DNA of 64,000 nucleotides. It comes from an uncultured Alphaproteobacteria bacterium. GTDB lineage: Bacteria; Pseudomonadota; Alphaproteobacteria; HIMB59; GCA-002718135. This document shows, one piece after another, positions 1 to 28,442 of the stretch (the first letter of the stretch is position 1; every line of letters begins with the position of its first letter). Made by a program: the position numbers and the translations under genes. Where the stretch lies: contig CACHSZ010000001.1 of assembly GCA_902582755.1 (NCBI GenBank), positions 113,774 to 177,773 on the forward strand, in the 5' to 3' direction. The notes under the pieces are model-generated. The model did not search any database, was not told where the DNA came from, and saw nothing but the letters and a program-made list of their open reading frames with translations.

Positions 1-513
1 AACAGGCTCTCTAACCATAGCACGACCAAGAGCAACTCTTTGTCTTTGACCACCTGACAATTGTCCTGGTTTTCTATCCAATAGTTCTGAAATTTTTAGA
101 GTTTCAGAAGTTTTATTTACTAATTGATTTATAGATTCTGTTTTCTCTTTTTTGCTTGGAGAAAAATTACCAATCAAGGGCAGTCTTTCAAATGCATTAT
201 AATCCCTTAGTCTTAATGGAGTTTCTAAATTTCTTCTTACTGTGAGATGAGGATAAAGAGCATATGATTGGAAGACCATTGCCAAATCTCTTTCACTGGC
301 TCTAACTCTATTTACATTTTTATTATCTATTAATACATCACCTGAAGTCTGCTGTTCCAATCCTGCAATTATTCTAAGTAATGTAGATTTACCACAACCA
401 GATGGACCAACTAACGTTAAGAATTCTCCATCGTTTATATCAACATTCAAATTATTAAGTACTTGTGTAGACCCAAATGACTTTGAAATATTTTTAAGTG
501 ATATTGTCCCCAC
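1..513 (-). CDS. ABC transporter ATP-binding protein, UgpC/MalK (CUT1) family; runs off the window start (3' part missing)
   Basis: Not in the ORF track; translated by hand from GTG at 513: MGTISLKNISKSFGSTQVL...[18 protein letters not shown] (Walker A)...AMVFQSYALYPHLTV...LSGGQRQRVALGRAMVREPV (signature). GGGGG RBS-like run upstream. Confidence 0.9.
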   Translation of the reverse strand, partial: MGTISLKNISKSFGSTQVLNNLNVDINDGEFLTLVGPSGCGKSTLLRIIAGLEQQTSGDVLIDNKNVNRVRASERDLAMVFQSYALYPHLTVRRNLETPLRLRDYNAFERLPLIGNFSPSKKEKTESINQLVNKTSETLKISELLDRKPGQLSGGQRQRVALGRAMVREPV

Positions 514-567
514 TCATTCCCCCTGTATCTTAACTTTAATCTACAAAATTTTATTAAATTTGAGAAT

Positions 568-611
568 ATTTTAAATCTATTTATTTCAGTTTTATTTCAA
601 TTTTATTAACA
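568..611 (-). promoter_or_regulatory. Pho box array (3 x 11-bp units) plus -10 element for the ABC ATPase gene
   Basis: Minus strand reads TGTTAAT-AAAA-TTGAAAT-AAAA-CTGAAAT (611-583), then TAAAAT (573-568) 9 bp later. This resembles the CTGTCAT-N4-CTGTCAT PhoB consensus and its promoter geometry. Confidence 0.7.
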
Positions 612-689
612 AATATTCAAATTATGATTGAGTTTAACTAGCAGATAACTATAAATTCGTATTTTTAATAATATATATTAGTTGAATTC

Positions 690-1931
690 GTGTCCGATAA
701 TTTAGAAATTAATAAAAGAGAATATCCAAGCTCTTTCTCAAAAACTGCTATTGTTATATGCCTTGATGGTAGTCAAAAAGAGTATCTCGAAGAAGCATCA
801 AAATCTAATCTTACACCAAATCTTGATAAATTAATTGCAAGTGGTGAAAACCTACTTGTTCACAGCGCTATTCCAAGTTTTACAAATCCAAATAACATTT
901 CGATTGTAACAGGCCAACCAAGTTCTGTACACGGTATATGCGGAAACTTCTTTTATACACCTGAGACTGGTGAAGAAGTTATGATGAATGACCCAAAATA
1001 TATGCGAGCACCAACTATTTTTGAAAAATTTTACAATTCTGGTTCTAAAATTGCTCTTGTTACTGCAAAAGACAAGTTGAGAACACTTTTAGGAAACGGA
1101 TTAAGTTTTGATGATGAGAGAGCTATTTGTTTTTCTGCTGAAAAATCTGATCAAGCAACAAAAGATCTCAATGGTATAGATAATGTAAACGATTGGTTGG
1201 GGATGCCAGTGCCAGAAGTATATTCTGAAGGACTCTCTGAATTTGTAATGGCTGCAGGTGTAAAACTTCTTGAAGAGTTTAAACCAAATATTATGTATTT
1301 ATCGACTACGGATTATATTCAACACAAATATGCACCGGGAAATGAAACAGCAAATAAATTTTATGCAATGTTTGATAAATATATTGGTCTTTTAAATAAT
1401 GAGAATGTTTCTATAATCATCACAGCAGATCACGGAATGAAACCAAAATCAAAAGAAGATGGTTCACCTAATGCAATATTTTTACAAGATTATTTAGATA
1501 AAAAATTTGAACCAAACATGGCTAAAGTCATCCTACCAATTACAGATCCATATGTCGTTCATCATGGTTCACTTGGTTCTTTTGCAACAATTTATTTAGA
1601 AGACAAGAGCAGGGTAGATTCAGTTGTAAATGCTATTAAAGAAATAAAAGATATAGAAGTTGTTTTAACAAAAGATGAAGGATGCTCTACTTATAATTTA
1701 CCTCCTGATAGAATGGGGGATATTATATGTATGTCTTCAGAATTTATGACTATTGGTTCATCGGAAGATAAACACAATCTTTCTGGATTAAATGAACCTT
1801 TACGTTCTCATGGAGGACTCCATGAAAGAGAAGTGCCATTCATATCAAATTTAAAATTACAAAACTTAGATACTAGCAAACAATTATATAACTATGATGC
1901 ATTTTATTATGCAATAAATGGAGCCCTATGA
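690..1931 (+). CDS. phnA: Phosphonoacetate hydrolase
   Basis: Alkaline phosphatase superfamily motifs [19 protein letters not shown] (catalytic Thr), [36 protein letters not shown]; overlaps phnY. Confidence 0.95.
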
Positions 1932-3370
1932 TGCACAAAAAAATGATTAATGAAGCAATGCGTATTGCTGGAGAAAAAGTTACTTCAGATAAAACAATAA
2001 ATGTTGAGTACCCTTTTACAGGTGAAGTAATCGGAACGGTTCCAGCCGGTACCGCAGAGCATGCAAGAAAGGCTTTAGATATAGCTGCAAATTATCAGCC
2101 TAAACTTACAAGATATGAGAGACAAAAAATTCTTCAAACTGCTGCAGAAGTACTTGTTAAAAGAAAAGAAGAAATTTCTGATATTATTACTTTAGAACTT
2201 GGTATCTCAAAACAAGATTCTTTATACGAAGTAGGAAGAGCTTTCGATGTATTTTCATTAACGGCTCAACTTTGTATTCATGATGATGGAGAAATATTTT
2301 CTTGTGATTTAACTCCGCATGGAAAAGCCAGAAAAATATTTACCATAAGAGAACCTTTAACGGCAATCTCAGCAATCACCCCATTTAATCATCCTTTGAA
2401 TATGGTAGCGCATAAAATTGCTCCTTCAATTGCAACTAATAATTGTACAGTATGTAAGCAGACAGAATTAACACCTTTAACAGCAATGGTACTCGCTGAT
2501 GTTTTATATGAAGCAGGCCTGCCACCAGAAATGTTTTCAGTTGTAACTGGATGGCCTCAAGATATCGGATCAGAAATGATCAAGAATCCAAATATCGATC
2601 TCATTACTTTTACAGGCAGTGTAGGTGTAGGAAAATTAATTGCTGAACAAGCTGGATACAAAAGAACTGTTCTTGAGTTAGGTGGTAATGATCCATTAAT
2701 TGTTTTAAATGACTTAGATGGTGATGATCTTAAAAAAGCTGTTGAGCTAGCTGTTACGGGAGCAACGAAAAATTCTGGTCAACGTTGTACAGCTGTTAAA
2801 AGAATACTTGTTCAAGAATCCATTGCAGATCAATTTGTTGAAATGGCTCTTGAGCGTGCAAAGAAAATTAAATTTGGTGATCCTATGAATATGGAAACAG
2901 ACTTAGGTACAGTTGTTAATGCTCAAGCTGCAGAACTTTTTGATAAAAGAGTTTCTATGGCTGAAGAAGACGGTGCAAAAATTTTATATCACCCTGGAAG
3001 AAAGGGTGCTTTGTTACCTCCAATAGTTGTAGATCACGTTGATCCTAAAAGTGAATTAGTTTTAGAAGAGACATTTGGTCCAGTTATCCCAATCATTCGT
3101 GTGCCTAATGACGATGAAGCTGTAATGAAAATATCTAATTCAACCGCATTCGGATTATCATCTGGTGTATGTACAAATAACTTCATGCGAGCAAAAAAAT
3201 ATATTCAAGGTTTAAATGTTGGTACGGTAAATATTTGGGAAGTTCCAGGTTATAGAATTGAAATGTCTCCTTTTGGAGGAATTAAAGATTCAGGTCTTGG
3301 TTACAAAGAGGGTGTTATTGAAGCAATGAAAAGTTTTACTAATGTAAAAACCTTTTCGCTACCTTGGTAA
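1928..3370 (+). CDS. phnY: Phosphonoacetaldehyde dehydrogenase (NAD-dependent ALDH)
   Basis: ALDH motifs [34 protein letters not shown]; PhnY-like [14 protein letters not shown] and [18 protein letters not shown]; 4-bp overlap with phnA. Confidence 0.93.
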
Positions 3371-3426
3371 ATAAACCAGTTTTTCTCTAATTTTTCTTAA
3401 TGCTGTGGAAAAATAAGCTTATTTTT

Positions 3427-3455
3427 TAGTAATATTTTCGTAATAAAATTGTAAC
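3427..3455 (+). promoter_or_regulatory. Pho box array (3 x 11-bp units) upstream of the substrate-binding protein gene
   Basis: TAGTAAT-ATTT-TCGTAAT-AAAA-TTGTAAC, exact 11-bp period, ending 51 bp before the ATG; GGAGG RBS downstream. Confidence 0.75.
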
Positions 3456-3506
3456 CCTTTGGGGCTACGTGTTAGATTAATATTATATTTGAATCGGAGG
3501 GATTAA

Positions 3507-4760
3507 ATGAAAAAATTAATTACAGGATTTGCAGCCGTATTAGCTTTTGGTTTTTATGGTTCTGTTAATTCAGCTAAGTCTATTGAAATAGAAGTAGCTT
3601 ATCCTTATTCAGGATTATTCGATGTAACTTTCCAAGCTATTATGCCAGAGTTTGAAAAAGCACATCCAGATATTCAAGTTAAATTTAGAGCAACTTATGA
3701 AAACTATGAGGATGCAACTGCAACAATCTTCAGAGAGTCTACTTCAGGTAATTTACCAGATGTAACAATGCAAGGTCTTAACAGACAGGCACCTCTAGTT
3801 GACAAAGGTATTGCTAAGTCTTTAGAGCCATTTATCGCAAAAGAAGCAGCTTTTGAAAAAGATGGTTACCATTCTGCTATGTTAAGTCTTTCAACATTCG
3901 GTGGTGAAGTTTATGGATTACCATTTTCTGTATCAACACCAGTTGGATATTATAACATGGATTTATTAGCTGAAGCAGGTGTAGATAGTATTCCAACTAA
4001 CTGGGACGAAGTTATTGCAGCATGTAATAAATTAGAAGCAGCAGGTAAAGGAACTCTATACTTCGGTTGGAACATTACAGGTAACTGGTTCCACCAAGCA
4101 TTAATGCATACTCAGAATGTTCCAATGGTTAAAGATGGAGCTGTAAATATGGGTGGAGATGCAGGACTTGCAACGTTAGAGCAAATGAAATCAATCATGA
4201 GCGGATGTAATATGCCAAACTATTCAATTGCTGATGGTCAAGCTGCGTTTAACGCAGGTACTATTGGTATGATGTTCTGGTCTACTTCAAGCTTGGGTTC
4301 AGTTAATGCTGCAAAGGCAGACTTTGTTTTAAAAACTGCACCATTCCCTGGAATGGCTGGAGTAAACAATGGAACACCAGCAAGATTACCAGCAGGTGGA
4401 AACGCTGCAATGTTAGTGTCTACATCTGATGATCCAGCAAGAGTTGATGCTGCATGGACTTTCTTAAAGTTCATAACATCAGGTATTGGTGCTGCATTAG
4501 TTGCTGAAACAACTGGATATGTTCCACCAAACAAAGCAGCGAATGATTTATTAGGTGATTTCTATAGTCAAAACCCTAATAAACTTACTGCTGTTGAACA
4601 ACTTCCACTTCTTGCTGATTGGTTTGCGTATCCTGGTGAAAATGGATTAGCTGTTACACAGGTAATCTATGATTACACGGAAGAAATTGCTACAGGCGAC
4701 GCTGATGATATGGCAGATCTTCAAGAAGAAATGATGGAAGAAATAAACGATCTTATGTAA
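3507..4760 (+). CDS. ABC transporter periplasmic substrate-binding protein, UgpB/CUT1 family
   Basis: Signal peptide (MKKLITGFAAVLAFG...SA), FEKAHPDIQV, YGLPFSVSTPVGYYNMDLL, PTNWDEV, AAWTFLKF, TGYVP; strong RBS; followed by a terminator. Confidence 0.88.
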   Translation: MKKLITGFAAVLAFGFYGSVNSAKSIEIEVAYPYSGLFDVTFQAIMPEFEKAHPDIQVKFRATYENYEDATATIFRESTSGNLPDVTMQGLNRQAPLVDKGIAKSLEPFIAKEAAFEKDGYHSAMLSLSTFGGEVYGLPFSVSTPVGYYNMDLLAEAGVDSIPTNWDEVIAACNKLEAAGKGTLYFGWNITGNWFHQALMHTQNVPMVKDGAVNMGGDAGLATLEQMKSIMSGCNMPNYSIADGQAAFNAGTIGMMFWSTSSLGSVNAAKADFVLKTAPFPGMAGVNNGTPARLPAGGNAAMLVSTSDDPARVDAAWTFLKFITSGIGAALVAETTGYVPPNKAANDLLGDFYSQNPNKLTAVEQLPLLADWFAYPGENGLAVTQVIYDYTEEIATGDADDMADLQEEMMEEINDLM

Positions 4761-4790
4761 TTTGAGATTATTTATTATTAACTTTTTATT

Positions 4791-4824
4791 ACAGCGGCTT
4801 TATAAAAGCCGCTGTTTTATTTTA
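4791..4824 (+). terminator. Intrinsic terminator / mRNA-stabilising hairpin after the SBP gene
   Basis: Perfect 11-bp stem ACAGCGGCTTT-ATA-AAAGCCGCTGT followed by a T-rich tract. Confidence 0.85.
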
Positions 4825-4847
4825 AATTTTAATGGGAGTAAAAATAG

Positions 4848-5927
4848 ATGCCTCTTAAAACAACCACAATAGGTGCTTATCCAAAACCGAAACAAACACC
4901 CATTCAAGATTGGTTTTTAGGGACAAAATCAGAAGAAGAGAGAAAAGCATCAAAAGGATTATTATCAAATTGGTCACCTGGCGCATATGAAAAAGCATTA
5001 GAGTCTGCAGGTGCGGATGCTGAAAAATTATTTTTAGCAGCAATTAAAGAAGTTATAACTGATCAAGTAAATGCGGGTATTGATGTTCCAACAGATGGAG
5101 AAGTCAGACGTGAGAGTTACGTATTATATCAATGTCGATTTTTAAATGGAGTAAGTTTTAAAGAAGTTACACATAAGTCAGTAAGACAAGGCGCGTTCGA
5201 AGCTGATCTTCCAACTATTGTTGCACCGATTTCAAGTAAAGAAATACGTATGCATCTAGACTGGAAGAGTGCACAACAATTTACAAAAAATCCAGTTAAA
5301 ATTACCCTACCTGGACCAATGACAATAACAGATTCAATTGCTAACAACTACTATGATGACATGAAAAAACTTGGTTTTGATTTAGCATTAGCTCTCAATA
5401 AAGAAATCAAGGCACTTGTAGATGCAGGTTGTCAGTATATTCAAATTGATGAACCAGTATTTGCTAGAAAGCCTGATGAAGCTCATTCATATGGTATGGA
5501 AAATTTAGAAAGAATGATGCATGGTATTCCTAAAGAAGTGCAACGCGTTTGCCATATTTGTTGTGGTTATCCCAACTCACTAGATTCAGAAGGGTATAAA
5601 AAGGCTGATCTAGATGCTTATGATAGAATTGCATCACTTGTAGATGATTCAACTATTGATGAAGTATCTTTGGAAGATTCACATAGGCATAATGATTTAA
5701 ATCTTTTAGAAAAATTTACTAAAACAAAAGTAATTTTTGGATTTATTGATATTGCAAAAAGTAGAATGGAGTCTGTTGAAGAAGTAAGAGTTCGTATCAA
5801 AGATTCACTTGAACATATTGATGAACACCGTTTAATAGCTGCACCAGATTGTGGTTTAGGTTTTTTTACCCGAGAACAAGCAATTGAGAAAATGACAATA
5901 TTAACTAAAGCGGCAAAATCAATTTAA
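4848..5927 (+). CDS. Short cobalamin-independent methionine synthase-like (MetE C-terminal / core Met synthase family) Zn enzyme; actual substrate unknown
   Basis: TTTIGAYPKP, QVNAGIDVPTDGEVRR, KITLPGPMTI, IQIDEP; Zn ligands in HICCGY, SLE and PDCGLG; only 359 aa, lacking the N-terminal half of MetE. Confidence 0.85.
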   Translation: MPLKTTTIGAYPKPKQTPIQDWFLGTKSEEERKASKGLLSNWSPGAYEKALESAGADAEKLFLAAIKEVITDQVNAGIDVPTDGEVRRESYVLYQCRFLNGVSFKEVTHKSVRQGAFEADLPTIVAPISSKEIRMHLDWKSAQQFTKNPVKITLPGPMTITDSIANNYYDDMKKLGFDLALALNKEIKALVDAGCQYIQIDEPVFARKPDEAHSYGMENLERMMHGIPKEVQRVCHICCGYPNSLDSEGYKKADLDAYDRIASLVDDSTIDEVSLEDSHRHNDLNLLEKFTKTKVIFGFIDIAKSRMESVEEVRVRIKDSLEHIDEHRLIAAPDCGLGFFTREQAIEKMTILTKAAKSI

Positions 5928-5931
5928 GGTA

Positions 5932-7044
5932 ATGTGGAATTATTTTAACCCTGTTGAAATTATCTTTGGAGAAAATAGATTTAAAGAAGTACATGATGCT
6001 GTTAAAAATAAAAAGTACATCATAATCACTCATCCAGAAGAAATTTTTAAAAAATATAGCGATGAATTAAAATCTTCTTCAAATCCACCTTTATCCATCA
6101 TGACGGATGTTCAGCCTAATCCAGATTATAAGGATATTTTAGAGTTACAAAATAAATTTTCTTCAATTAATGAATCGGTAGATTATATTTTAGCTATAGG
6201 TGGTGGCTCTGTTACAGACACAGCTAAAGCAATTGCTGCATTTAAAGATAAACAAGAATATCTAACAGATTTTGTTCGCAATAAGAAAAGTCCAAGAGTA
6301 GAAAATCCAATTAAGATTATTGCAATACCTACAACTTCAGGAACATCAAGTGAGCTTACGTGTTGGGCCACAATATGGGATAAAGAAAAAAATAATAAAT
6401 TATCTTTGGCGCATAAATCTCTTTATGCAGAAAAAGCAATTATCGATCCATCAATTATGGTTGATAAGCCTTTAGGCTTGACCATTTCAACAGGTTTAGA
6501 TGCTCTCTCTCATTCAATGGAAAGTATTTGGAATATTAATGCAAACCCAATTTCTGCTTCTCATGCAATACAAGCATCAAAATTAGTATTAGAAAATTTA
6601 CCACTTCTCACTAAAGATTTAAGAAATGTTGTATTACGTTCAAACATTGCACTGGCATGCGTTCATGCTGGCTTAGCGTTTTCCAATACGAAAACTGCTA
6701 TTGCGCACAATCTATCATACCCTGTGACACTCAATTACGGTATTCAGCATGGTATTGCTTGTTCATTTACTTTACCCATGATTACTAAAAGTATGGTTGG
6801 AATTGATAGTGTCGCTGAGGAAAGACTAAAATTAATTTTTAACGATAATCTAGAGAATGCCGCAAATCATCTGAGTGAATTTATGCGTTCTTTGGAAGTT
6901 CCTCTGAACTTAAATGAAATAAAAGTTCCTGTTCAAGAATGGAATAATATAGTAGATGACGCGTTTTTAGGAGAACGAGGTAAAAACTTTATTGGGAATA
7001 AAGAAGCCTTCATCTCTTCTGCTAAATCAATGGGACTTTATTAG
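5932..7044 (+). CDS. Iron-containing alcohol dehydrogenase, phosphonoacetaldehyde reductase-like
   Basis: GGGSVTDTAK, PTTSGTSSE, metal ligands in DALSHSMES, TAIAHNLSY and QHGIAC; WATIWD motif; located in the phosphonate cluster. Confidence 0.88.
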   Translation: MWNYFNPVEIIFGENRFKEVHDAVKNKKYIIITHPEEIFKKYSDELKSSSNPPLSIMTDVQPNPDYKDILELQNKFSSINESVDYILAIGGGSVTDTAKAIAAFKDKQEYLTDFVRNKKSPRVENPIKIIAIPTTSGTSSELTCWATIWDKEKNNKLSLAHKSLYAEKAIIDPSIMVDKPLGLTISTGLDALSHSMESIWNINANPISASHAIQASKLVLENLPLLTKDLRNVVLRSNIALACVHAGLAFSNTKTAIAHNLSYPVTLNYGIQHGIACSFTLPMITKSMVGIDSVAEERLKLIFNDNLENAANHLSEFMRSLEVPLNLNEIKVPVQEWNNIVDDAFLGERGKNFIGNKEAFISSAKSMGLY

Positions 7045-7046
7045 TA

Positions 7047-8153
7047 ATGAAAAAAAATTTCAGGTTTTATGATAACAGACAAAAATATTTATTATTTGTC
7101 ACAACAACAAATGAAAAAAATCAAATTGCTGATGCGATACGTCCTCACGTAAATAAAATTAAACCGCAAAAACCTGGTTTAAAAATATTTGATGCTGGGA
7201 TGGGTGATGGTTCCTTACTTATGAATGTTATGCGTCAGTGCCACGAGGCCAGGCCTAACGTACCTCTATTAGTTTGCACAAAAGAAATAAGTATTGAAGA
7301 TGTAAGATTAGGTTTGGAAAAATTACCCGATAGGTTTGTTGAGCATAAGAATACTGTTTTTGTAATTTCAAATTTACACTACGCTGAAGCCGCAAACCTA
7401 AAATCAAAAAATGACGTTAAACAGAAAAAAATTAATTGGAATATTATTAAATTAAAAGGTGACACCTCTCTTGAATTTGCCCAACAATTAAGAAAACAAA
7501 ATGAATTTTTAGAAAAAAAATGGAATATAGAAATTAATAAAAAGTCAGGTAACCATACTTATAAGGAGCCTTCAGTCATGGTTATTTACCGTGAAGATCA
7601 AGAATTTAATGTTAATGAATTAATACCAACCAAAAAAAAATCAGATAATAAATTTGATCTTATTATTGCTTCACAGCCTTATCGTTCAAGAATTTCAGCA
7701 GAAAAGAAATCAAAATATGTCATCGAACCAATGATTCGAGCGTTAAAATCAAAAGGGAAATTATTAACTATTCATGCTTCAGGAAAAGATCCTGCTAATG
7801 AAATAATTCGTAAAATTTGGCCAAAAGAGGACCCCTTTCCTTCTCTTGGGAATAGTATCATTTCTTATCTTAAGAAAAATTTAGATAAAGAGTTATTAAG
7901 CAGTTTATCTTTTGGAGAAAAAAGAATTATTAAATGTAAACTGAGAGCTCTACCAACAGAAATCACTGGAGGTATAGCGACATCATTAGTTTTCTCTGCT
8001 TGGAATGCCTCTATATATGTCAATCAAATGGATGATGATAAAGTTATGAAAGTAGAAAAAACAAAAAATTACGAAAAAGTAGTTCAAAAAATTGTTGCTA
8101 AAAATAAAGGTCTTTATTTTAACAATGAAATATTTGTAATCGAAAAAAAATAA
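7047..8153 (+). CDS. Conserved hypothetical protein with a class I SAM-dependent methyltransferase-like motif
   Basis: Motif I-like IFDAGMGDG, later FDLIIASQ and LKSKGKLL; 2-bp gap to the upstream gene. Confidence 0.6.
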   Translation: MKKNFRFYDNRQKYLLFVTTTNEKNQIADAIRPHVNKIKPQKPGLKIFDAGMGDGSLLMNVMRQCHEARPNVPLLVCTKEISIEDVRLGLEKLPDRFVEHKNTVFVISNLHYAEAANLKSKNDVKQKKINWNIIKLKGDTSLEFAQQLRKQNEFLEKKWNIEINKKSGNHTYKEPSVMVIYREDQEFNVNELIPTKKKSDNKFDLIIASQPYRSRISAEKKSKYVIEPMIRALKSKGKLLTIHASGKDPANEIIRKIWPKEDPFPSLGNSIISYLKKNLDKELLSSLSFGEKRIIKCKLRALPTEITGGIATSLVFSAWNASIYVNQMDDDKVMKVEKTKNYEKVVQKIVAKNKGLYFNNEIFVIEKK

Positions 8154-8157
8154 TTTT

Positions 8158-8946
8158 TTATTTAAACCAATTAACTTCTGTTTTTAAAAAATCCTCTGTA
8201 TGAATAATTAAGGCGTCAGATCGAATTATTGCAACATTATAATTTGTATCTGTATTTGCTGTCCCTAAACGATATTCATTTGAAAAGTTAGGAATTAGGG
8301 GAGACCAAGTACTTCTTGGGGAGGAAAAAGTAATACCACAATAAGAACCAGAACTTGTAATGTGTTGATGACCAAAAAAAATATGTTTTATTATCTTATT
8401 ATTTTTAGTTAAAATTTGTTGAAACTCTTTTTTTTGTTGTAATCCTATTCCATCACTTTCCTCTTTTACTAATGCTAGTGGATTATGATGCATAAAGATG
8501 TACGTATCTGTATTAGTTTTACCTAAAATATTATTTAACCATTCTTGCCTCTCTTCACAGTAATGTCCTTGGTGAGTATTAATCAGATTAGTATCTATAA
8601 AAATTAAACGTTTATTATCTATATCCTTAAAGTATTGAATAAATCCATTTGGATCGGTTTCAATATTAGGAAAGTTTATTTTAAACTCATCTCTGTTATC
8701 ATGATTACCTATAATGAGTTGAGGATTTAAATTCTTTGGCAGGCCTGCTTCATCAATGATTTTTATAAATAACTGATAAGAATCTTTATCACCTAAGTCT
8801 GTAATATCACCAGTGATGGCAAATAAATCTGCATCACCATGATTATTTTTTATATGACTTAATGCTTTTTTAAATTTACTGACAGGATCTATGCCATGAA
8901 TCTTATCTATATAAATATGGGGGTCTGAAAGGTGAATAATTTTCAT
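8158..8946 (-). CDS. Calcineurin-like metallophosphoesterase (GpdQ/CpdA-type phosphodiesterase)
   Basis: LSDPH, TGDITD, GNHD, FMHHNP, FFGHQH metal-binding motifs; no signal peptide. Confidence 0.88.
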   Translation of the reverse strand: MKIIHLSDPHIYIDKIHGIDPVSKFKKALSHIKNNHGDADLFAITGDITDLGDKDSYQLFIKIIDEAGLPKNLNPQLIIGNHDNRDEFKINFPNIETDPNGFIQYFKDIDNKRLIFIDTNLINTHQGHYCEERQEWLNNILGKTNTDTYIFMHHNPLALVKEESDGIGLQQKKEFQQILTKNNKIIKHIFFGHQHITSSGSYCGITFSSPRSTWSPLIPNFSNEYRLGTANTDTNYNVAIIRSDALIIHTEDFLKTEVNWFK

Positions 8947-8966
8947 TATTAAATATAAATTTATAA

Positions 8967-9599
8967 TTAGATCGCAGTTTTAAAATAAATATATTTATTA
9001 AATTCCTCTTTTAAGTCGATGCTAACTCTTGCATGTACTTTACCTTGTTTTCCATGAAATGATTGTTTTTCTTTAACTGGAAACACCCCTTCATGCCAAA
9101 TGTTTGGATGAATATACAAACCTTTTGATCCATCACAATAAAATGCTTTGAAATGTTCTGGTTCGATGTCGTCTGTTGGTAAAGCTAAAGGACAAATAAA
9201 TGGTTTATTTTCTGCAGGAAAAAAAAGCTGACCTCCATCAGGATGATAATTTGCATGCCATAGAAATATTTTTGTTGGATCTGAATATTTATCTTTTTGC
9301 AATTCTTGATCGGGGTTATTGGCATAACCCAGTATATATTTTCCATCTACTTCATAATCGCTCTTATGTTGGACAGCATTATTTTGTCCATAAAGCACAT
9401 CACCTTGCCACCAGGTATCAAAAGAACCTTCGGTAGTTCCACCTTCATTACCAGTTCCCTCTTCTATGTCGCGCCATCCTTGTTTTGGCCAAGTAACAAT
9501 TTCAATATCACTATTTTCAAAACTATCGATTAAATATCCGTATCCTTTAAGATTTTCATTTGTTGCTTTAACTAATGGTATTTCAATTTCTTTTGTCAT
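8967..9599 (-). CDS. Ureidoglycolate lyase (AllA)-like protein, divergent
   Basis: AT.E...GYG N-terminus, NYHPDGGQLFFP, FKAF.CDGSKGLYIHPNIWH; resembles the AllA fold, but the canonical ERHP reads NYHP. Confidence 0.65.
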   Translation of the reverse strand: MTKEIEIPLVKATNENLKGYGYLIDSFENSDIEIVTWPKQGWRDIEEGTGNEGGTTEGSFDTWWQGDVLYGQNNAVQHKSDYEVDGKYILGYANNPDQELQKDKYSDPTKIFLWHANYHPDGGQLFFPAENKPFICPLALPTDDIEPEHFKAFYCDGSKGLYIHPNIWHEGVFPVKEKQSFHGKQGKVHARVSIDLKEEFNKYIYFKTAI

Positions 9600-9606
9600 T
9601 ATTTTG

Positions 9607-10704
9607 TTAGTTTAATGTTAATCCCAATTCAGTAACGACTTCTTTTACAGCTTTTATTGTATCCATCATGTCTTGTTCATCTAAATTACCAATACACCCA
9701 ATTCTAAAAGTTTCTGCCACTGTTAGTTTTCCTGGATAAATTAAAAAATCTTTTTCACTAAGAGCATTATAAAATTTCTCAAAGTTAAATTTAGGATCAT
9801 TAGGTTGTTTAAAAGTAATAATAATTGGTGCTTGCAAATTATCAGGAAGTAGTTGTTCAAATCCCAACTCTTTCATTCCATTACAAATAATTTCACAATT
9901 TTTTTTATATCTTTTACCTCTTCCCTTTACACCGCCTTGTTGTTTATGTTCCTCAATCGCTTGATTGAATGCAGCCAATACGTGTGTAGGAGGTGTAAAT
10001 CGCCATTGTTTATTTTTTTCCATTGCTTGCCATTGATCATATAAGTCTAGACTTAGTGAGTGACTATTGCCTTTTGCATTTTGAATAACTTCATTTTTAA
10101 CAAGAATGAAACCAACACCTGGCACACCTTCTAAGCATTTGTTTGATGAAGCGGCTACAGCATCAAAAGTAATTATTTTAGAACTTAAGGGTAATGCACC
10201 AAAGGCACTCATTGCATCGATGAATAACGATAAATTTTTCTCTTCAACCAATTTTGCAATGTCTTCAATAGGATTTAAAATACCCGATGTTGTTTCACAA
10301 TATACGGCAAAGACGTGTGTTAAGCTGTTGCTATCAATTAACTCTTCAATTTTATTGATGTCATGAACTTCATGTTCAGCAACTTCATATTCAATAAAAT
10401 CTCTCCCTAAATATGTGCACATTTTTTTCATTCTTTGTCCGTAAGCACCATTGATCAGAATCAGAATTTTAGAATCTTTTTGAGTAAGAGAGCTCACCAT
10501 CGACTCTACAGCAAAAGTTCCACTTCCCTGCATTGGAACACATTGATATTTATCTTCACCATCTATTAATTTAACAAGGGAATCTCTAATTGATGCATTG
10601 AGATCAATAAATTTTGTATCTCTCGAACCCCAATCATGAAGCATAGCCTCTTTTGTTGACATCGATGTCGTAAGAGGCCCAGGGGTTAATAATTTTTTAT
10701 CCAT
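9607..10704 (-). CDS. phnW: 2-aminoethylphosphonate--pyruvate transaminase
   Basis: LLTPGPLTTS, DWGSRD, QGSGTFAVE, CETTSGILNP, DAMSAFGA, SSNKCLEGVPG (PLP Lys), QWRFTPPTH, IYPGK. Confidence 0.96.
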   Translation of the reverse strand: MDKKLLTPGPLTTSMSTKEAMLHDWGSRDTKFIDLNASIRDSLVKLIDGEDKYQCVPMQGSGTFAVESMVSSLTQKDSKILILINGAYGQRMKKMCTYLGRDFIEYEVAEHEVHDINKIEELIDSNSLTHVFAVYCETTSGILNPIEDIAKLVEEKNLSLFIDAMSAFGALPLSSKIITFDAVAASSNKCLEGVPGVGFILVKNEVIQNAKGNSHSLSLDLYDQWQAMEKNKQWRFTPPTHVLAAFNQAIEEHKQQGGVKGRGKRYKKNCEIICNGMKELGFEQLLPDNLQAPIIITFKQPNDPKFNFEKFYNALSEKDFLIYPGKLTVAETFRIGCIGNLDEQDMMDTIKAVKEVVTELGLTLN

Positions 10705-10792
10705 TAAATATTTACTTAATAAATATTATTATAAATTTGATCAATCTTATTAAAGTTGGAATTGAATTTATTTTCTAATAAGTTAATTATAA

Positions 10793-11368
10793 ATGAGAAT
10801 GGAAGAAAATATTGTAGATTATCTCTTAGATCTTTTGAAAACAAAAGGTGCTGATATTCAATATGGTAATGAGGATGTGACCCAGCTTGAGCACGCACTC
10901 CAATGTGCTGAACTTGCTGAAAAACATAAATTACCAGGACCAACAATTGCTGCAGCATTACTGCATGATGTTGGCCACCTTATTTATGAGGACGGCGATC
11001 CCATTCATGAAGGGAAAGATGGTCATCATGAAAACTTAGGTGCTGATTTTTTAAAAAAATATTTTAATGAAGATGTTATTTTACCAATAAGAGCACATGT
11101 TGATTCAAAAAGATATTTATCAAGTGTTGAAGAAGGTTATTATGATAGTCTATCAGAAGCATCGAAACTTTCGTTAAAAGTTCAAGGCGGTCCTTTCACA
11201 AAAGAAGAAGCAGATGCGTTTATAAGTAAACCTTTTATGGATGAGGCAGTAGAGCTTAGAAGATTTGATGATCTAGCAAAAATTCTAGATAAAAAAACTC
11301 CCGATGTTGAACATTTTCGCCCCTATTTAGAAGAAGCAAGACAGTCTTTTTTAGCTAAACAAGCGTAA
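10793..11368 (+). CDS. phnZ: HD-domain diiron phosphonate oxygenase (PhnZ family)
   Basis: YGNEDVTQLEHALQCA, AALLHDVGH, HENLGA, HVDSKRYL, LSEASKLSLKVQGGPF, LRRFDDLAK; start may be the ATG at 10799. Confidence 0.9.
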   Translation: MRMEENIVDYLLDLLKTKGADIQYGNEDVTQLEHALQCAELAEKHKLPGPTIAAALLHDVGHLIYEDGDPIHEGKDGHHENLGADFLKKYFNEDVILPIRAHVDSKRYLSSVEEGYYDSLSEASKLSLKVQGGPFTKEEADAFISKPFMDEAVELRRFDDLAKILDKKTPDVEHFRPYLEEARQSFLAKQA

Positions 11369-11893
11369 ATGCAATTTAGCAATTATGATTTTATTGACTC
11401 TAAGTCATTTGCAGGAAAAATTATATTAACTTCTTTTCCAGGTCTTAACTCTAATGGTTTATTTGAAGAAACAATTTTAGCAAACGAATTAGAAATATTT
11501 AAAAATAATAATTGTAGTTCTATTACTTCTTTTGTTGAAGATAGCGAATTTGAAAAATTGTGTGATAAAACTTTGTTTGTCAAAAATATTTATGAACATA
11601 AATTACATTGGTACCATTTACCCATTTATGACATGGGAGCACCAGATAAAGATTTTAAATATAAATGGGAAACAACAAAAGTTTTATTAAAGAACGAATT
11701 GATAGATGGTAAAAATATAGTTTTACATTGCCGTGGAGGAAAAGGAAGAGCTGGCACTATAGCTGCGATTTTACTTGTTGAATTTAATTATGAAAAACAA
11801 GAAGCTATTGATCTAGTGAGATCAAAAAGGAAGGGAGCGATTGAATCAAAAGTGCAAGAAAATTTTATTGAAAATTACAATGTTGTTAAGTAA
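11369..11893 (+). CDS. Cys-based dual-specificity/tyrosine phosphatase (CDKN3-like)
   Basis: HLPIYDMGAPD acid loop, HCRGGKGRAG (CX5R), VRSKRKGAIESKVQ. Confidence 0.88.
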   Translation: MQFSNYDFIDSKSFAGKIILTSFPGLNSNGLFEETILANELEIFKNNNCSSITSFVEDSEFEKLCDKTLFVKNIYEHKLHWYHLPIYDMGAPDKDFKYKWETTKVLLKNELIDGKNIVLHCRGGKGRAGTIAAILLVEFNYEKQEAIDLVRSKRKGAIESKVQENFIENYNVVK

Positions 11894-11901
11894 AAAATCT
11901 T

Positions 11902-12909
11902 ATGTTTAAAATCTTCCTTGTATTTATTTTTACCATTTTATTTTTTAATTTTGCTCATGCTCAAAAAATACCTAAGCAAGAAAGAAAAGACTTTGATTAT
12001 TTTGTCTTGAAAGACCAATCTGATAAAAATATGGTCTACAATGAAAGAAATGTACCCAAAAGAAAAAATCTTTTAAAATTTCATGAGAATTATGAAGGTG
12101 AAAAAGCCGTAGAAATAAATCTTAGCTATAAAGATGTAGGTGACGAAATGGACTGGTTAAGATGGAACCAACCTGGATTCGCTCAGCGTTTTCAGATTGG
12201 AGAACCATTAAAAAAAACAACGAAAGCTGGTAAAGAAAAATGGTACAGAGTTGGAATATTTATTCCTGGAAAAACCAATACTGAGAAACACACTATATCT
12301 TTTTTTGATTTTAAAATGATTTATGGCAAAACAGAAATGTCTGTCGGTCCAGCATTTACCCTAGTTAATAATGAATTTACATTTTTTGTTAACGGGTCTC
12401 AATATATAACTTATGAAGATCGAGAGGGTGTAGAGTTATATGGCTTTGAACATTATGCAATTGTATTAGACTCTATTTATAAGGGTAAGCATAAAGGAAA
12501 GTGGATTAATATTCTTATAAATGCCAAATGGCATACCGATGGGTTTATACATATGTGGATTGATGATGAATTAAGAGTTAGTTACTACGGAGACATGATT
12601 GCTGGTGCTGATAGGATTAGATTTAAGTTTGGACCTTACAGACATCATATGACGCAAGCAACAGATGCTGGTTTAAACATTGAAGACATAAAAATATATT
12701 ACTCAAATGTAGGAAAGTCAGATAAATGTGAAAACTTATGGAGTGGCTGTGATTATTTAACAGACCAAATAATTAAAAAGTCTCAACTAAATGGAGTCCG
12801 TGATGTTAATCTAACTCAGATAGACAAAGGGGATAATAATCAAATAAAACCAGAAAATGTTTTTTTTAAATTCGAAATTAATCCTCAAGACCCACTTCCA
12901 TCAATGTAA
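11902..12909 (+). CDS. Secreted protein, polysaccharide lyase / heparin lyase I-like beta-jelly-roll (tentative)
   Basis: Signal peptide ending AHA; WYRVGIFIP, GKWINILINAKW, GFIHMWIDD and FKFGPYR resemble Polysacc_lyase family motifs. Confidence 0.55.
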   Translation: MFKIFLVFIFTILFFNFAHAQKIPKQERKDFDYFVLKDQSDKNMVYNERNVPKRKNLLKFHENYEGEKAVEINLSYKDVGDEMDWLRWNQPGFAQRFQIGEPLKKTTKAGKEKWYRVGIFIPGKTNTEKHTISFFDFKMIYGKTEMSVGPAFTLVNNEFTFFVNGSQYITYEDREGVELYGFEHYAIVLDSIYKGKHKGKWINILINAKWHTDGFIHMWIDDELRVSYYGDMIAGADRIRFKFGPYRHHMTQATDAGLNIEDIKIYYSNVGKSDKCENLWSGCDYLTDQIIKKSQLNGVRDVNLTQIDKGDNNQIKPENVFFKFEINPQDPLPSM

Positions 12910-12911
12910 GG

Positions 12912-13964
12912 TCAAAAAGAAACAGTTAAATTAAAAATATTTTCTAAAATAAATAAAACAATTAAAGAAATTAATGCTGCAATTATAGGTAGTGTCATCC
13001 AACCCAAAGAAATTCGTCCTGCAATTGACCATTGAACCTCTTTTCCTCCTTTTAAAAGACCAATTCCAATTACGCCACCAACAACAGCTTGGGAACTTGA
13101 TACTGGTACCAAAGGTATAGAGGGAAGATTTATAGATTGTAAAAAAGCACTTATACCCTGGGATGCAAATAAAAATAAAACAATAGAATGCGATATAACA
13201 ACAATAAATGCTGCCACTGGTGTCATTTTTAAGAGATCATTACCCACGGTAAACATAACTCTTTTCGAGTAAGTAAAAACACCAACAGCTATTGCTAAAC
13301 CACCCAGCAGAAATAATTGTTCTTTGGAAGAAAAGACAAATAAATTTCCAATAGTAACATCAGTAAACGGTGATATAGGTACGAAGACACCCATTACATT
13401 AGCAATATTGTTTGCGCCTAAACTATAAGCACCAAAAGCACCCGCTAAAAGTAAAGCTGTTCTTGTATACGCATCAAGTCTGAGAATATGTAACTTTCTA
13501 TTGAGTATAACTCTTTTTGTAAAAGTAAATAAACCCATTGCAATAACTCCTGCAATGATAGGGCAGAGTATCCATGTTCCTAAAATAGTAATTAAAACTT
13601 GAAGATTAGTTGAAGATCCCGTGTATAAATTCCAACCAACAATTGCTCCAACGATCGCTTGCGTTGTAGAAACAGGCAAGCCAACTTTGGTCATTAAATA
13701 AACGGATATGCCTGCAGCCACACATGCTGCAAAGGCACCAGGTAATGCATTAATAGCACCTAACTTACCTAAAGTTTCTGTTGTTCCTGCTCCACTAATA
13801 ATTGCACCTAGAATAACAAAGACACTACAAATAATTGCTGCACTTGTGAAACTAACCATTCGTGTTCCAACAGCAGTTCCAAAAACATTTGCTGCATCAT
13901 TGGCGCCAAGTGACCAACCTAAAAAAAGACCACCAAATAAAAAAATTAGAATTGTAATTTCCAT
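12912..13964 (-). CDS. pit: Inorganic phosphate transporter, PiT family
   Basis: GANDAANVFGTAVG, GLPVSTTQAIVG, GANNIAN, PVSSSQAVVGG; multi-TM. Confidence 0.92.
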   Translation of the reverse strand: MEITILIFLFGGLFLGWSLGANDAANVFGTAVGTRMVSFTSAAIICSVFVILGAIISGAGTTETLGKLGAINALPGAFAACVAAGISVYLMTKVGLPVSTTQAIVGAIVGWNLYTGSSTNLQVLITILGTWILCPIIAGVIAMGLFTFTKRVILNRKLHILRLDAYTRTALLLAGAFGAYSLGANNIANVMGVFVPISPFTDVTIGNLFVFSSKEQLFLLGGLAIAVGVFTYSKRVMFTVGNDLLKMTPVAAFIVVISHSIVLFLFASQGISAFLQSINLPSIPLVPVSSSQAVVGGVIGIGLLKGGKEVQWSIAGRISLGWMTLPIIAALISLIVLFILENIFNLTVSF

Positions 13965-13970
13965 TGAAAA

Positions 13971-14633
13971 TTAAACGGAGCGTTTAATAGCGTAAATTTG
14001 AACCTCGTCAGCTATGTCTTCTGCTTGATCACAAATACGATCAATCTTCTCTACAAAATATCGAAGATGCATTTTTTGATCTAGAGGTAATTCAGAATCA
14101 AAAATTCTTCTTGCAAGTGCACTAAATTTTATATCAGATTCTTTTTCATAAAATGTAACTTTATGTGCATTATCTCTAACAGATTTAATATCTCTAAAAA
14201 ATGATCTTACAGTTAAACATAATGATTCAACACAATTTACAACAGTCTCTGTTAACTCAATTAAATCTTGGTGAAACTCTTTTGGAAAATTAGGTTTTTG
14301 AATAGAGAAGTGATAACAATTCCCTTGGTACATTCCAATTAATTCGTCGATGTGTTCTAGAAGTCGTAGCACATCACTTCTTGCATCTGGGATTAGTGTT
14401 TCTTCATAAAGAGTATGCTCAACATCTTTCGTAATTTTGTCGGCCTTACTTTCCATTTCTTTTACTTTTTCAACCATTTCCTCAAATTTACCATTGGCGG
14501 AATGATTGAGATAAGTTGGAACTATCGATTTAAATACTAAGCCCACTTCAGAGACAATATCAACAAACTCATCAATTTCTCTTTCAAGCTTTTTGGTATC
14601 ACCAAATAATGATGCACTTTTTAATCCAAACAT
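13971..14633 (-). CDS. DUF47 / PhoU-like Pit accessory protein
   Basis: ESKADKI and EKESD repeats, C-terminal DQAEDIAD; directly upstream of pit. Confidence 0.88.
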   Translation of the reverse strand: MFGLKSASLFGDTKKLEREIDEFVDIVSEVGLVFKSIVPTYLNHSANGKFEEMVEKVKEMESKADKITKDVEHTLYEETLIPDARSDVLRLLEHIDELIGMYQGNCYHFSIQKPNFPKEFHQDLIELTETVVNCVESLCLTVRSFFRDIKSVRDNAHKVTFYEKESDIKFSALARRIFDSELPLDQKMHLRYFVEKIDRICDQAEDIADEVQIYAIKRSV

Positions 14634-14672
14634 GACGTGCTTATAGAACTTTTCAAAAAAAAAGAAAGAAAT

Positions 14673-14701
14673 GTTAAATTTTTGTTACAATTTGATTAAT
14701 A
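14673..14701 (-). promoter_or_regulatory. Pho box array (3 units) upstream of DUF47-pit
   Basis: Minus strand TATTAAT-CAAA-TTGTAAC-AAAA-ATTTAAC; shares an identical 19-mer (AATTGTAACAAAAATTTAA) with the box upstream of phoB. Confidence 0.75.
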
Positions 14702-28413: not shown

Positions 28414-28442
28414 TTGTAATAGAATTGTAACAAAAATTTAAT
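28414..28442 (+). promoter_or_regulatory. Pho box array (3 units) filling the phoU-phoB spacer
   Basis: TTGTAAT-AGAA-TTGTAAC-AAAA-ATTTAAT, exact 11-bp period, ending 11 bp before the phoB ATG. Confidence 0.8.

Follow-up and report, generated by a model that had tools for sequence, protein, structure and literature searches.

A conserved CUT1 importer, MetE-like and PhpC cassette in the phosphorus-starvation island of a HIMB59-order bacterium, and its possible phosphonate ester cargo

Results

Gene Content and Pho Boxes of the Locus

We analyzed a stretch of 64,000 nucleotides (the window; C1:113774-177773, contig CACHSZ010000001.1 of assembly GCA_902582755.1) that carries an ATP-binding cassette (ABC) importer of the CUT1 type among genes of phosphonate catabolism. 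The genome (1.43 Mb, ~30% GC, 85% complete) is that of an alphaproteobacterium of the HIMB59 order (AEGEAN-169); for loci whose binding protein is identical (100%), the PMC10734472 supplement gives order HIMB59, family GCA-002718135, and a placement in SAR11 proper is rejected on that basis. PhnA, PhnY, PhnW, PhnZ and an iron-type alcohol dehydrogenase (Fe-ADH) were scored against NCBIfam cut-offs. At the left edge, the 5' part of a ugpC-like ABC ATPase gene (1..513, reverse strand, gene start at 513) continues beyond the window into ugpA- and ugpE-like permease genes and an EamA gene resembling phn_DUF6 (C1:110448-114286; TIGR03340, 144 vs 288 bits). The forward strand then carries phnA, for phosphonoacetate hydrolase (690..1931; TIGR02335, 468 vs 407.6 bits), phnY, for phosphonoacetaldehyde dehydrogenase (1928..3370; TIGR03250, 799 vs 635.7 bits), the gene for the substrate-binding protein (SBP; 3507..4760), a core-MetE-like zinc methyltransferase gene (4848..5927) and the Fe-ADH gene (5932..7044; TIGR03405, 364 vs 423.7 bits). 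Farther right lie a cytoplasmic GpdQ/SpdA-like metallophosphodiesterase (8158..8946, reverse), phnW, for 2-aminoethylphosphonate (AEP) transaminase (9607..10704, reverse; TIGR02326, 460 vs 400.8 bits), and a phnZ-like HD-domain oxygenase gene (10793..11368, forward; TIGR03276, 200 vs 214.6 bits). PhnA, PhnY and PhnW thus pass their cut-offs and are clustered, with PhnZ and the Fe-ADH slightly under theirs. Every gene that an earlier note on this DNA had listed (phnW, phnY, phnA, phnZ, the UgpB/UgpC-like ABC system, the phosphodiesterase, the Fe-ADH and a lyase-like gene) was found in the sequence, along with four that it lacked: the MetE-like gene and genes for a methyltransferase-fold protein, a ureidoglycolate-lyase-like protein and a DSP-type phosphatase.

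Pho boxes were sought genome-wide as three YTGTMAY half-sites with N4 spacing (11-bp period) and compared with shuffles, using a half-site consensus picked after viewing the SBP region. Only two genomic sites had at most 2 mismatches, one before the SBP gene (3427..3455, forward) and one before phoB (28414-28442); the SBP box, with 2 mismatches, is the joint best of the genome with the phoB box, ~1 such site being expected genome-wide in shuffles, and it is kept in relatives. The triple repeat before ugpC (611-583, i.e., 583..611, reverse) has 4 mismatches, a level reached by 114 sites in the genome vs 157 in shuffles; it is not significant by itself and is weakly suggested by its conservation, with relatives showing perfect half-sites. 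The idea that both transporter genes carry Pho boxes is therefore strong for the SBP gene but weak for ugpC. The strict E. coli form of the box had zero matches at the SBP/ugpC region, and the same genome scan found no box before phnW or phnZ. As side observations, the near-perfect box directly upstream of phoB, indicative of autoregulation, is stronger than any before pstS, and a perfect two-half-site box lies elsewhere on the contig (G000:C1:229894).

The Conserved Unit Comprises the Importer, PhnA, PhnY, the MetE-Like Gene and PhpC

We compared 80 related loci, which are close kin rather than independent samples, limiting each count to loci with sequence at the slot concerned. The gene upstream of the SBP was phnY in 80/80 loci, the gene downstream was MetE-like in 79/79, and this was followed by phpC in 77/77, so the proposed link of the Pho-boxed CUT1 importer to phosphonate genes is borne out for phnY-phnA-phpC. 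We predict the Fe-ADH to be a PhpC-type 2-hydroxyethylphosphonate (HEP) dehydrogenase: its TIGR03405 score is far above that for the next Fe-ADH family (161 bits), and K156, D190, H194, T255, H259, Y263, H273 and R349 fit the residues named in PMC13576164, as matched by motif and numbering without direct alignment (metal D/H/H/H plus equivalents of K157, T256, Y264 and R349). The earlier assignment of HEP oxidation to phosphonoacetaldehyde to this enzyme was right, and HEP dehydrogenases of this kind were published in 2026 (PMC13576164).

In the sister family, 18/18 loci with sequence beyond phpC were without the methyltransferase-fold gene, phosphodiesterase, phnW and phnZ there; 0/5 genomes of that family had phnW or PehA above cut-off, and 4/5 carry a GpdQ/SpdA-like gene elsewhere. 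Since the order phnY-SBP-MetE-like-phpC holds in a family without phnW above cut-off, the unit is a HEP route. The conserved unit is therefore the importer plus PhnA-PhnY-SBP-MetE-like-PhpC, narrower than first proposed: PhnW and the adjacent phosphodiesterase, which had been counted as members, fall outside it. The phosphorus-starvation island is a mosaic to which PhnW, PhnZ and the lyase are add-ons, each inherited separately. An SBP at least 88% identical occurs in 36/61 genomes of the HIMB59 order. One genome (G503, 85% complete) has phnW-Y-A-Z and the lyase without the importer, MetE-like gene, PhpC or phosphodiesterase at that locus, and had zero SBP matches anywhere in the genome.

This real and conserved cassette joins an already known catabolic core to a methyltransferase and an importer that are both unassigned. 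Of the AEGEAN-169 clades, passages of PMC11366302 report the full PhnW-PhnY-PhnA route for >85% of one and phnY-phnA by itself for 30% of the other. PhpC explains that "partial" phnY-phnA pathway as a HEP route.

The Binding Pocket Points to a Phosph(on)ate Ligand

The SBP matches CUT1 families only (SBP_bac_1/8) and none of PhnD, PhnS and AepX; across the whole genome, no PhnD or AepX/PhnS2 was found above cut-off. Its assignment to a UgpB-like ABC system stands insofar as it belongs to the UgpB/GPC/U3G branch of CUT1 (GPC, glycerophosphocholine), but it is not UgpB itself, scoring 66 vs 411 bits on model NF008211. The best structural matches of the predicted SBP model (predicted local distance difference test score 84) are UgpB, GPC-binding and dinucleotide-binding proteins, at 19-24% identity.

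We mapped the pocket from an alignment to 9LFF, read by hand, with residue roles taken from passages of PMC12718374. All four residues that contact phosphate oxygens in UgpB are retained (Y64, S143, S266 and Y342, corresponding to Y67, S143, S259 and Y338 in the SBP), while the glycerol residues E88 and R393 are replaced by G90 and T384. In the Trp clamp of UgpB, W188 is retained and W191 becomes T191, and the SBP has five added aromatics, Y34, F38, W194, W258 and W372, which may form a cage for a trimethylammonium group. The 25 pocket positions checked (25/25) were identical in at least 88/90 orthologues (at least 55% identity), regardless of the adjoining enzyme. This pattern suggests that the ligand bears a phosph(on)ate group and probably lacks a glycerol-like diol, and that it is common to all contexts. 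With the Glu and Arg that bind glycerol in UgpB gone, the sugar- or glycerol-linked cargo of the earlier note is disfavored. Ordinary uptake of glycerol-3-phosphate (G3P) by UgpB is ruled out by score and pocket residues.

The MetE-Like Gene and a Possible Choline Link

The MetE-like protein has the catalytic domain of MetE, with the Zn motif HxC, the E and PDCG invariant in 26 sequences (here H236, C238, E276 and C335). It falls below the cut-offs for core methionine synthases (best 196 vs 406 and 194 vs 392 bits), and the copies linked to the importer make up a single clade (12 sequences; FastTree support 0.99). A family-level search for MetE-like genes, with 1/39, was uninformative. Distant homologues were found at 17 loci in 15/400 genomes. 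Of these loci, 6/17 adjoin betaine-yielding genes (tmpA-tmpB, betA, betB, betC, carnitine dehydrogenase or a dimethylglycine-dehydrogenase-like gene), TmpA passing its cut-off at two and TmpB at one; another adjoins phnA, and one, like the host's own paralogue, follows a PehA-like gene. TmpAB yields glycine betaine; the cluster studied here is without tmpA, and its HD gene at 10793-11368 falls below cut-off for TmpB (157 vs 300 bits).

The host's paralogue lies at G000:C1:308625-311226 (L242:11629-14218), where a second MetE-like gene (49%) stands directly after a PehA-like hydrolase (412 vs 900 bits) and is flanked by a family-5 ABC importer, an omega-aminotransferase, alanine dehydrogenase and a phosphate-acyltransferase-like gene; it is a second pairing of an ester hydrolase with a MetE-like gene. 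Operons of other Alphaproteobacteria that hold tmpA-tmpB, choline or carnitine genes (L274:12864-15837, L275:7609-9386, L268, L272 and L278) include an unnamed core-MetE family, which is a candidate betaine-type methyltransferase of non-BHMT fold.

A Possible Route for Small Phosphonate Esters

Our tentative interpretation, to which we give somewhat less than an even chance, is uptake of a small, probably N-methylated phosphonate ester, followed by cytoplasmic cleavage, the HEP route and methyl salvage. The cassette (ugpC/A/E-like genes, SBP, MetE-like and PhpC, with PhnY-PhnA) would import a small non-sugar phosphonate ester, most likely carrying choline or another N-methyl group. The GpdQ-like phosphodiesterase, adjacent here and elsewhere in sister genomes, would cleave the ester in the cytoplasm. 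PhpC would oxidize the freed HEP to phosphonoacetaldehyde, which PhnY would convert to phosphonoacetate and PhnA to acetate and Pi; these reactions, and that of PhnW, are known from other organisms. The MetE-like enzyme would salvage the methyl group onto homocysteine. Whereas gene identities, linkage, Pho boxes and pocket residues can be read directly, the ligand, the ester cleavage and the MetE-like methyl donor are what we infer.

The phosphodiesterase keeps seven metal ligands in an alignment to PDB 2ZO9, which we take to be GpdQ, has no signal peptide and scores 173 vs 400 bits on the SpdA model. GpdQ is active on phosphonate monoesters. The slot is variable: its alleles are 54-77% identical between flanks that are mostly 85-99% identical (window 8158-8946; L052, L061, L092 and L096). 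In a quick tree, subject to composition bias, the HIMB59 clade falls among cassette enzymes without strong support. The sister-family phosphodiesterase is divergently oriented from the choline dehydrogenase gene betA in 3/3 genomes fetched. Two side observations concern this gene. Its slot often carries a second CUT1 system, and at L281:8054-15893, in the HIMB59 family, betA and a GpdQ-like gene are oriented divergently, close to genes for an HD protein and a TmpA-like dioxygenase (335 vs 400 bits).

The absence of a hydrolase from the conserved unit in all 18 sister-family loci with sequence beyond phpC would also fit import of free phosphonates, such as HEP, AEP or an N-methylated AEP, e.g., N-trimethyl-AEP (TMAEP), with the phosphodiesterase incidental and the MetE-like enzyme demethylating or directly converting the cargo. 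The lack of PhnD or AepX above cut-off in the host points the same way, as do the BHMT-family gene already available for betaine and the MetE-like gene directly followed by an alcohol dehydrogenase here and in L163, L170, L191 and L194. We nevertheless regard uptake of free phosphonates as unlikely, since the same pocket is retained in orthologues whose sole partner is a phosphodiesterase, 4/5 sister-family genomes keep a phosphodiesterase elsewhere, and one genome retains phnW-Y-A-Z without the importer.

Orthologous Importers in Other Lineages

The genome-collection scan returned close kin only, and distant context came from an even class draw, metagenome contigs and plasmids; clustering at 85% gave 39 lineages, 24 of them with a locus of at least 10 kb. 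The even draw placed the SBP in 12/400 Alphaproteobacteria, next to a GpdQ-like gene in 9 and a PehA-like gene in 1. An ester hydrolase lies near the importer in 18/24 lineages and in 10/12 even-draw genomes, which upholds the pairing of the importer clade with a phosphodiesterase or PehA-type phosphonate monoester hydrolase as the usual arrangement. A MetE/UROD-fold gene is near it in 6/24 lineages, and a phosphonate gene in 8/24, or 6/22 outside HIMB59; L132 enters these tallies twice. Distant orthologues adjoin PhnY*-PhnZ (L174), PhpC (L159), PhnDCE-PhnA (L163), PhnA-PhnY (L191), PbfA with PehA and PhnYA (L175), PhnF (L125, L220) and PhnN (L199); the PhpC and phosphodiesterase-phnY*-phnZ neighbors come from a 9-kb lineage outside the 24. 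Against a sister CUT1 control, a phosphonate neighbor was found in 6/22 vs 1/15 (p=0.13; even draw 1/12 vs 1/15, p=0.70), a comparison in which the test side pools loci per lineage and is thereby favored. BLAST markers drawn from the test loci gave 0/17 for the control, and an NCBIfam scan of 95/104 dereplicated control neighbors found one PhnM, which supplied the control count in the comparison. With 176 vs 411 bits on the UgpB model, the control is a sister clade, not proven UgpB.

The expected co-occurrence with phn genes thus holds in that the importer recurs beside several phosphonate systems, but the enrichment is not significant and most cassettes are without phn genes. On these data, the importer may instead take up ordinary small phosphate diesters or phosphocholine-like head groups and be merely co-located with phn genes. 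Most orthologous cassettes consist of LysR-CUT1-phosphodiesterase, the phosphodiesterase pairs with betA, and the structural neighbors bind G3P, GPC or a dinucleotide, all of which this explanation accommodates. What it leaves unexplained makes it somewhat unlikely in our view: in both families the phnA-phnY-...-phpC run encloses the SBP gene, the SBP is found again beside six or more distinct phosphonate systems, among them a phosphodiesterase-phnY*-phnZ run in a single orientation, and it has lost the glycerol residues that G3P and GPC require.

The same cassette occurs on plasmids of cultured Phaeobacter, Tistrella, Agrobacterium, Cupriavidus and Delftia. The Phaeobacter SBP orthologues are 62-65% identical, from cultured and genetically tractable strains, and Phaeobacter MED193_11288/11293/11308 (phosphodiesterase, CUT1 SBP and ATPase), of unconfirmed orthology, are induced by P starvation and stand in the same order. 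If MED193_11293 is indeed an orthologue, the published ugpB gpxB double mutant implies that it cannot sustain growth with G3P as the carbon source. GTDB genomes contain roughly 518 orthologues in all.

Three variants are recorded as observations in their own right. At L174:3043-6697, the SBP-phosphodiesterase-phnY*-phnZ run best matches methylphosphonate oxidation models, below cut-off, and is a possible methylphosphonate-ester route. A Roseobacter-type variant (L175:3400-21233, L181 and L201) combines the same importer with a GbdR-like regulator, a UROD/MetE-fold gene, a GabT-like transaminase, Zn-ADH, hydroxypyruvate-isomerase-like, PbfA, PehA-like and phn_DUF6 genes, phnY and phnA, and may act on C2 phosphonates of the 1-hydroxy or amino type. 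Conjugative plasmids, IncP among them, carry a more distantly related (37%) HAD-CUT1-phosphodiesterase cassette bounded by IS elements (L279, L280 and L219).

The Lyase-Like Gene and the Rest of the Island

The lyase-like open reading frame (11902..12909, forward) has a partial PF14099 match of 38 bits and a hydrophobic N terminus. It is present in 1/37 related loci spanning its slot, and in contigs of two seawater runs it is skipped, 11869 being connected directly with 12914. Homologues occur in 19/187 genomes of the order, 3 (75-100% identical) in the island slot and 16 elsewhere. Within the island, the lyase is a rare allele of long standing, a passenger and no member of the pathway. A part for it as upstream depolymerase is ruled out by this distribution, and it has no solved relative.

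The full route first suggested for this locus had a secreted lyase fragmenting a phosphonoglycan, the CUT1 system importing sugar- or glycerol-linked phosphonates, and the phosphodiesterase freeing AEP or HEP. Passages of PMC5649143 name polysaccharide esters of HEP and methylphosphonate as major marine phosphonates, and 3/3 of the closest lyase alleles occupy the island slot, but we consider this route very improbable: the lyase is found in 1/37 importer-bearing loci, G503 carries it without importer, phosphodiesterase or PhpC, it had no PDB match at E<0.7, the seawater contigs skip it, and the diol-binding residues of the SBP are lost.

The methyltransferase-fold protein (7047..8153, forward), an accessory gene for which an atlas search gave only "methyltransferase family," has a 40% homologue that precedes the same importer in L170 and L194. 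The ureidoglycolate-lyase-family gene (8967..9599, reverse; atlas search, only "ureidoglycolate lyase family") travels with phnW within the host family. A DSP/PTP-type phosphatase gene (11369..11893, forward) lies between phnZ and the lyase, and a pit phosphate permease gene with DUF47 and a Pho-box-like repeat (12912..14701, reverse) lies to the right; the genes from pit onward match the HIMB59 phosphate island published in PMC10734472, as far as its passages show. Contigs from seawater RNA libraries span the island, at depths that can neither rank genes nor prove transcription.

Discussion

Several points weigh against import and cleavage of an N-methylated phosphonate ester. The pocket mapping is built on ~24% identity. 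Homologues of the MetE-like gene at betaine loci are 46-55% identical and lie outside the importer-linked clade, the host genome already has a BHMT-family gene and is 85% complete, and no described compound was found that is a choline ester of HEP. The phosphodiesterase is the weakest step, with its alleles swapped; in 10 related loci a second CUT1 system lies opposite the allele (62-70% identical), and some loci lack the gene, so the phosphodiesterase may serve another importer. Phosphonate-specific genes are missing near the importer in 16/24 lineages, and to this is added the nonsignificant enrichment, itself from a comparison favoring the test side.

A broader proposal, which we put forward as possible but doubtful, is that the SBP clade is a widespread CUT1 importer for choline-like esters of alkylphosphonates (HEP or methylphosphonate), delivering its cargo to the C-P cleavage system present in each host, with a new core-MetE clade capturing the N-methyl group for methionine. 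If true, marine phosphonate cycling would gain its missing steps of uptake and de-esterification, and an unrecognized phosphonate ester of low molecular weight would be indicated in seawater. According to passages of PMC5649143 and PMC10574752, marine phosphonate is mostly ester-bound, described importers take free phosphonates, and de-esterifying enzymes are merely postulated. A literature search, mostly without subscription papers, returned no description of the importer clade, nor of a MetE-like gene in phosphonate catabolism. The SBP is common in an abundant oligotrophic order, and cultured, tractable orthologues exist (Phaeobacter). The question is thereby narrowed: the lyase and sugar conjugates are dropped, and small N-methylated esters and the MetE-like enzyme remain.

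Among known systems, UgpBAEC (E. coli 4AQ4, Phaeobacter 9LFF and the GPC-binding UgpB of M. tuberculosis; passages of PMC12718374) has the same fold and branch and shares the four phosphate-oxygen residues, the Pho box and pairing with a phosphodiesterase. The importer described here differs in its ~20-24% identity, in the replacement of Glu88, Arg393 and Trp191, and in a partner that is GpdQ-type, not UgpQ-type. With GpdQ/SpdA and PehA the phosphodiesterase shares metal ligands, and orthologous importers adjoin GpdQ-like or PehA-like genes; PehA has been proposed to free phosphonates from dissolved organic matter (passages of PMC5649143). The MetE-like enzyme has the MetE catalytic domain and Zn ligands in common with the core methionine synthases MesA-D, but scores below their cut-offs and has its own importer-linked clade; the difference from TmpA-TmpB is that the cluster has no tmpA. 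For the AEGEAN-169 route, passages of PMC11366302 name no importer, PhpC, MetE-like gene or phosphodiesterase. HEP clusters of PhpC with PhnY-PhnA (PMC13576164; passages of PMC9381506) have the same PF00465 enzyme, with its metal and phosphonate residues, beside phnY-phnA; the transporters in the clusters of PMC13576164 are shown as unassigned, whereas here PhpC is linked with a MetE-like gene and an importer of the CUT1 type.

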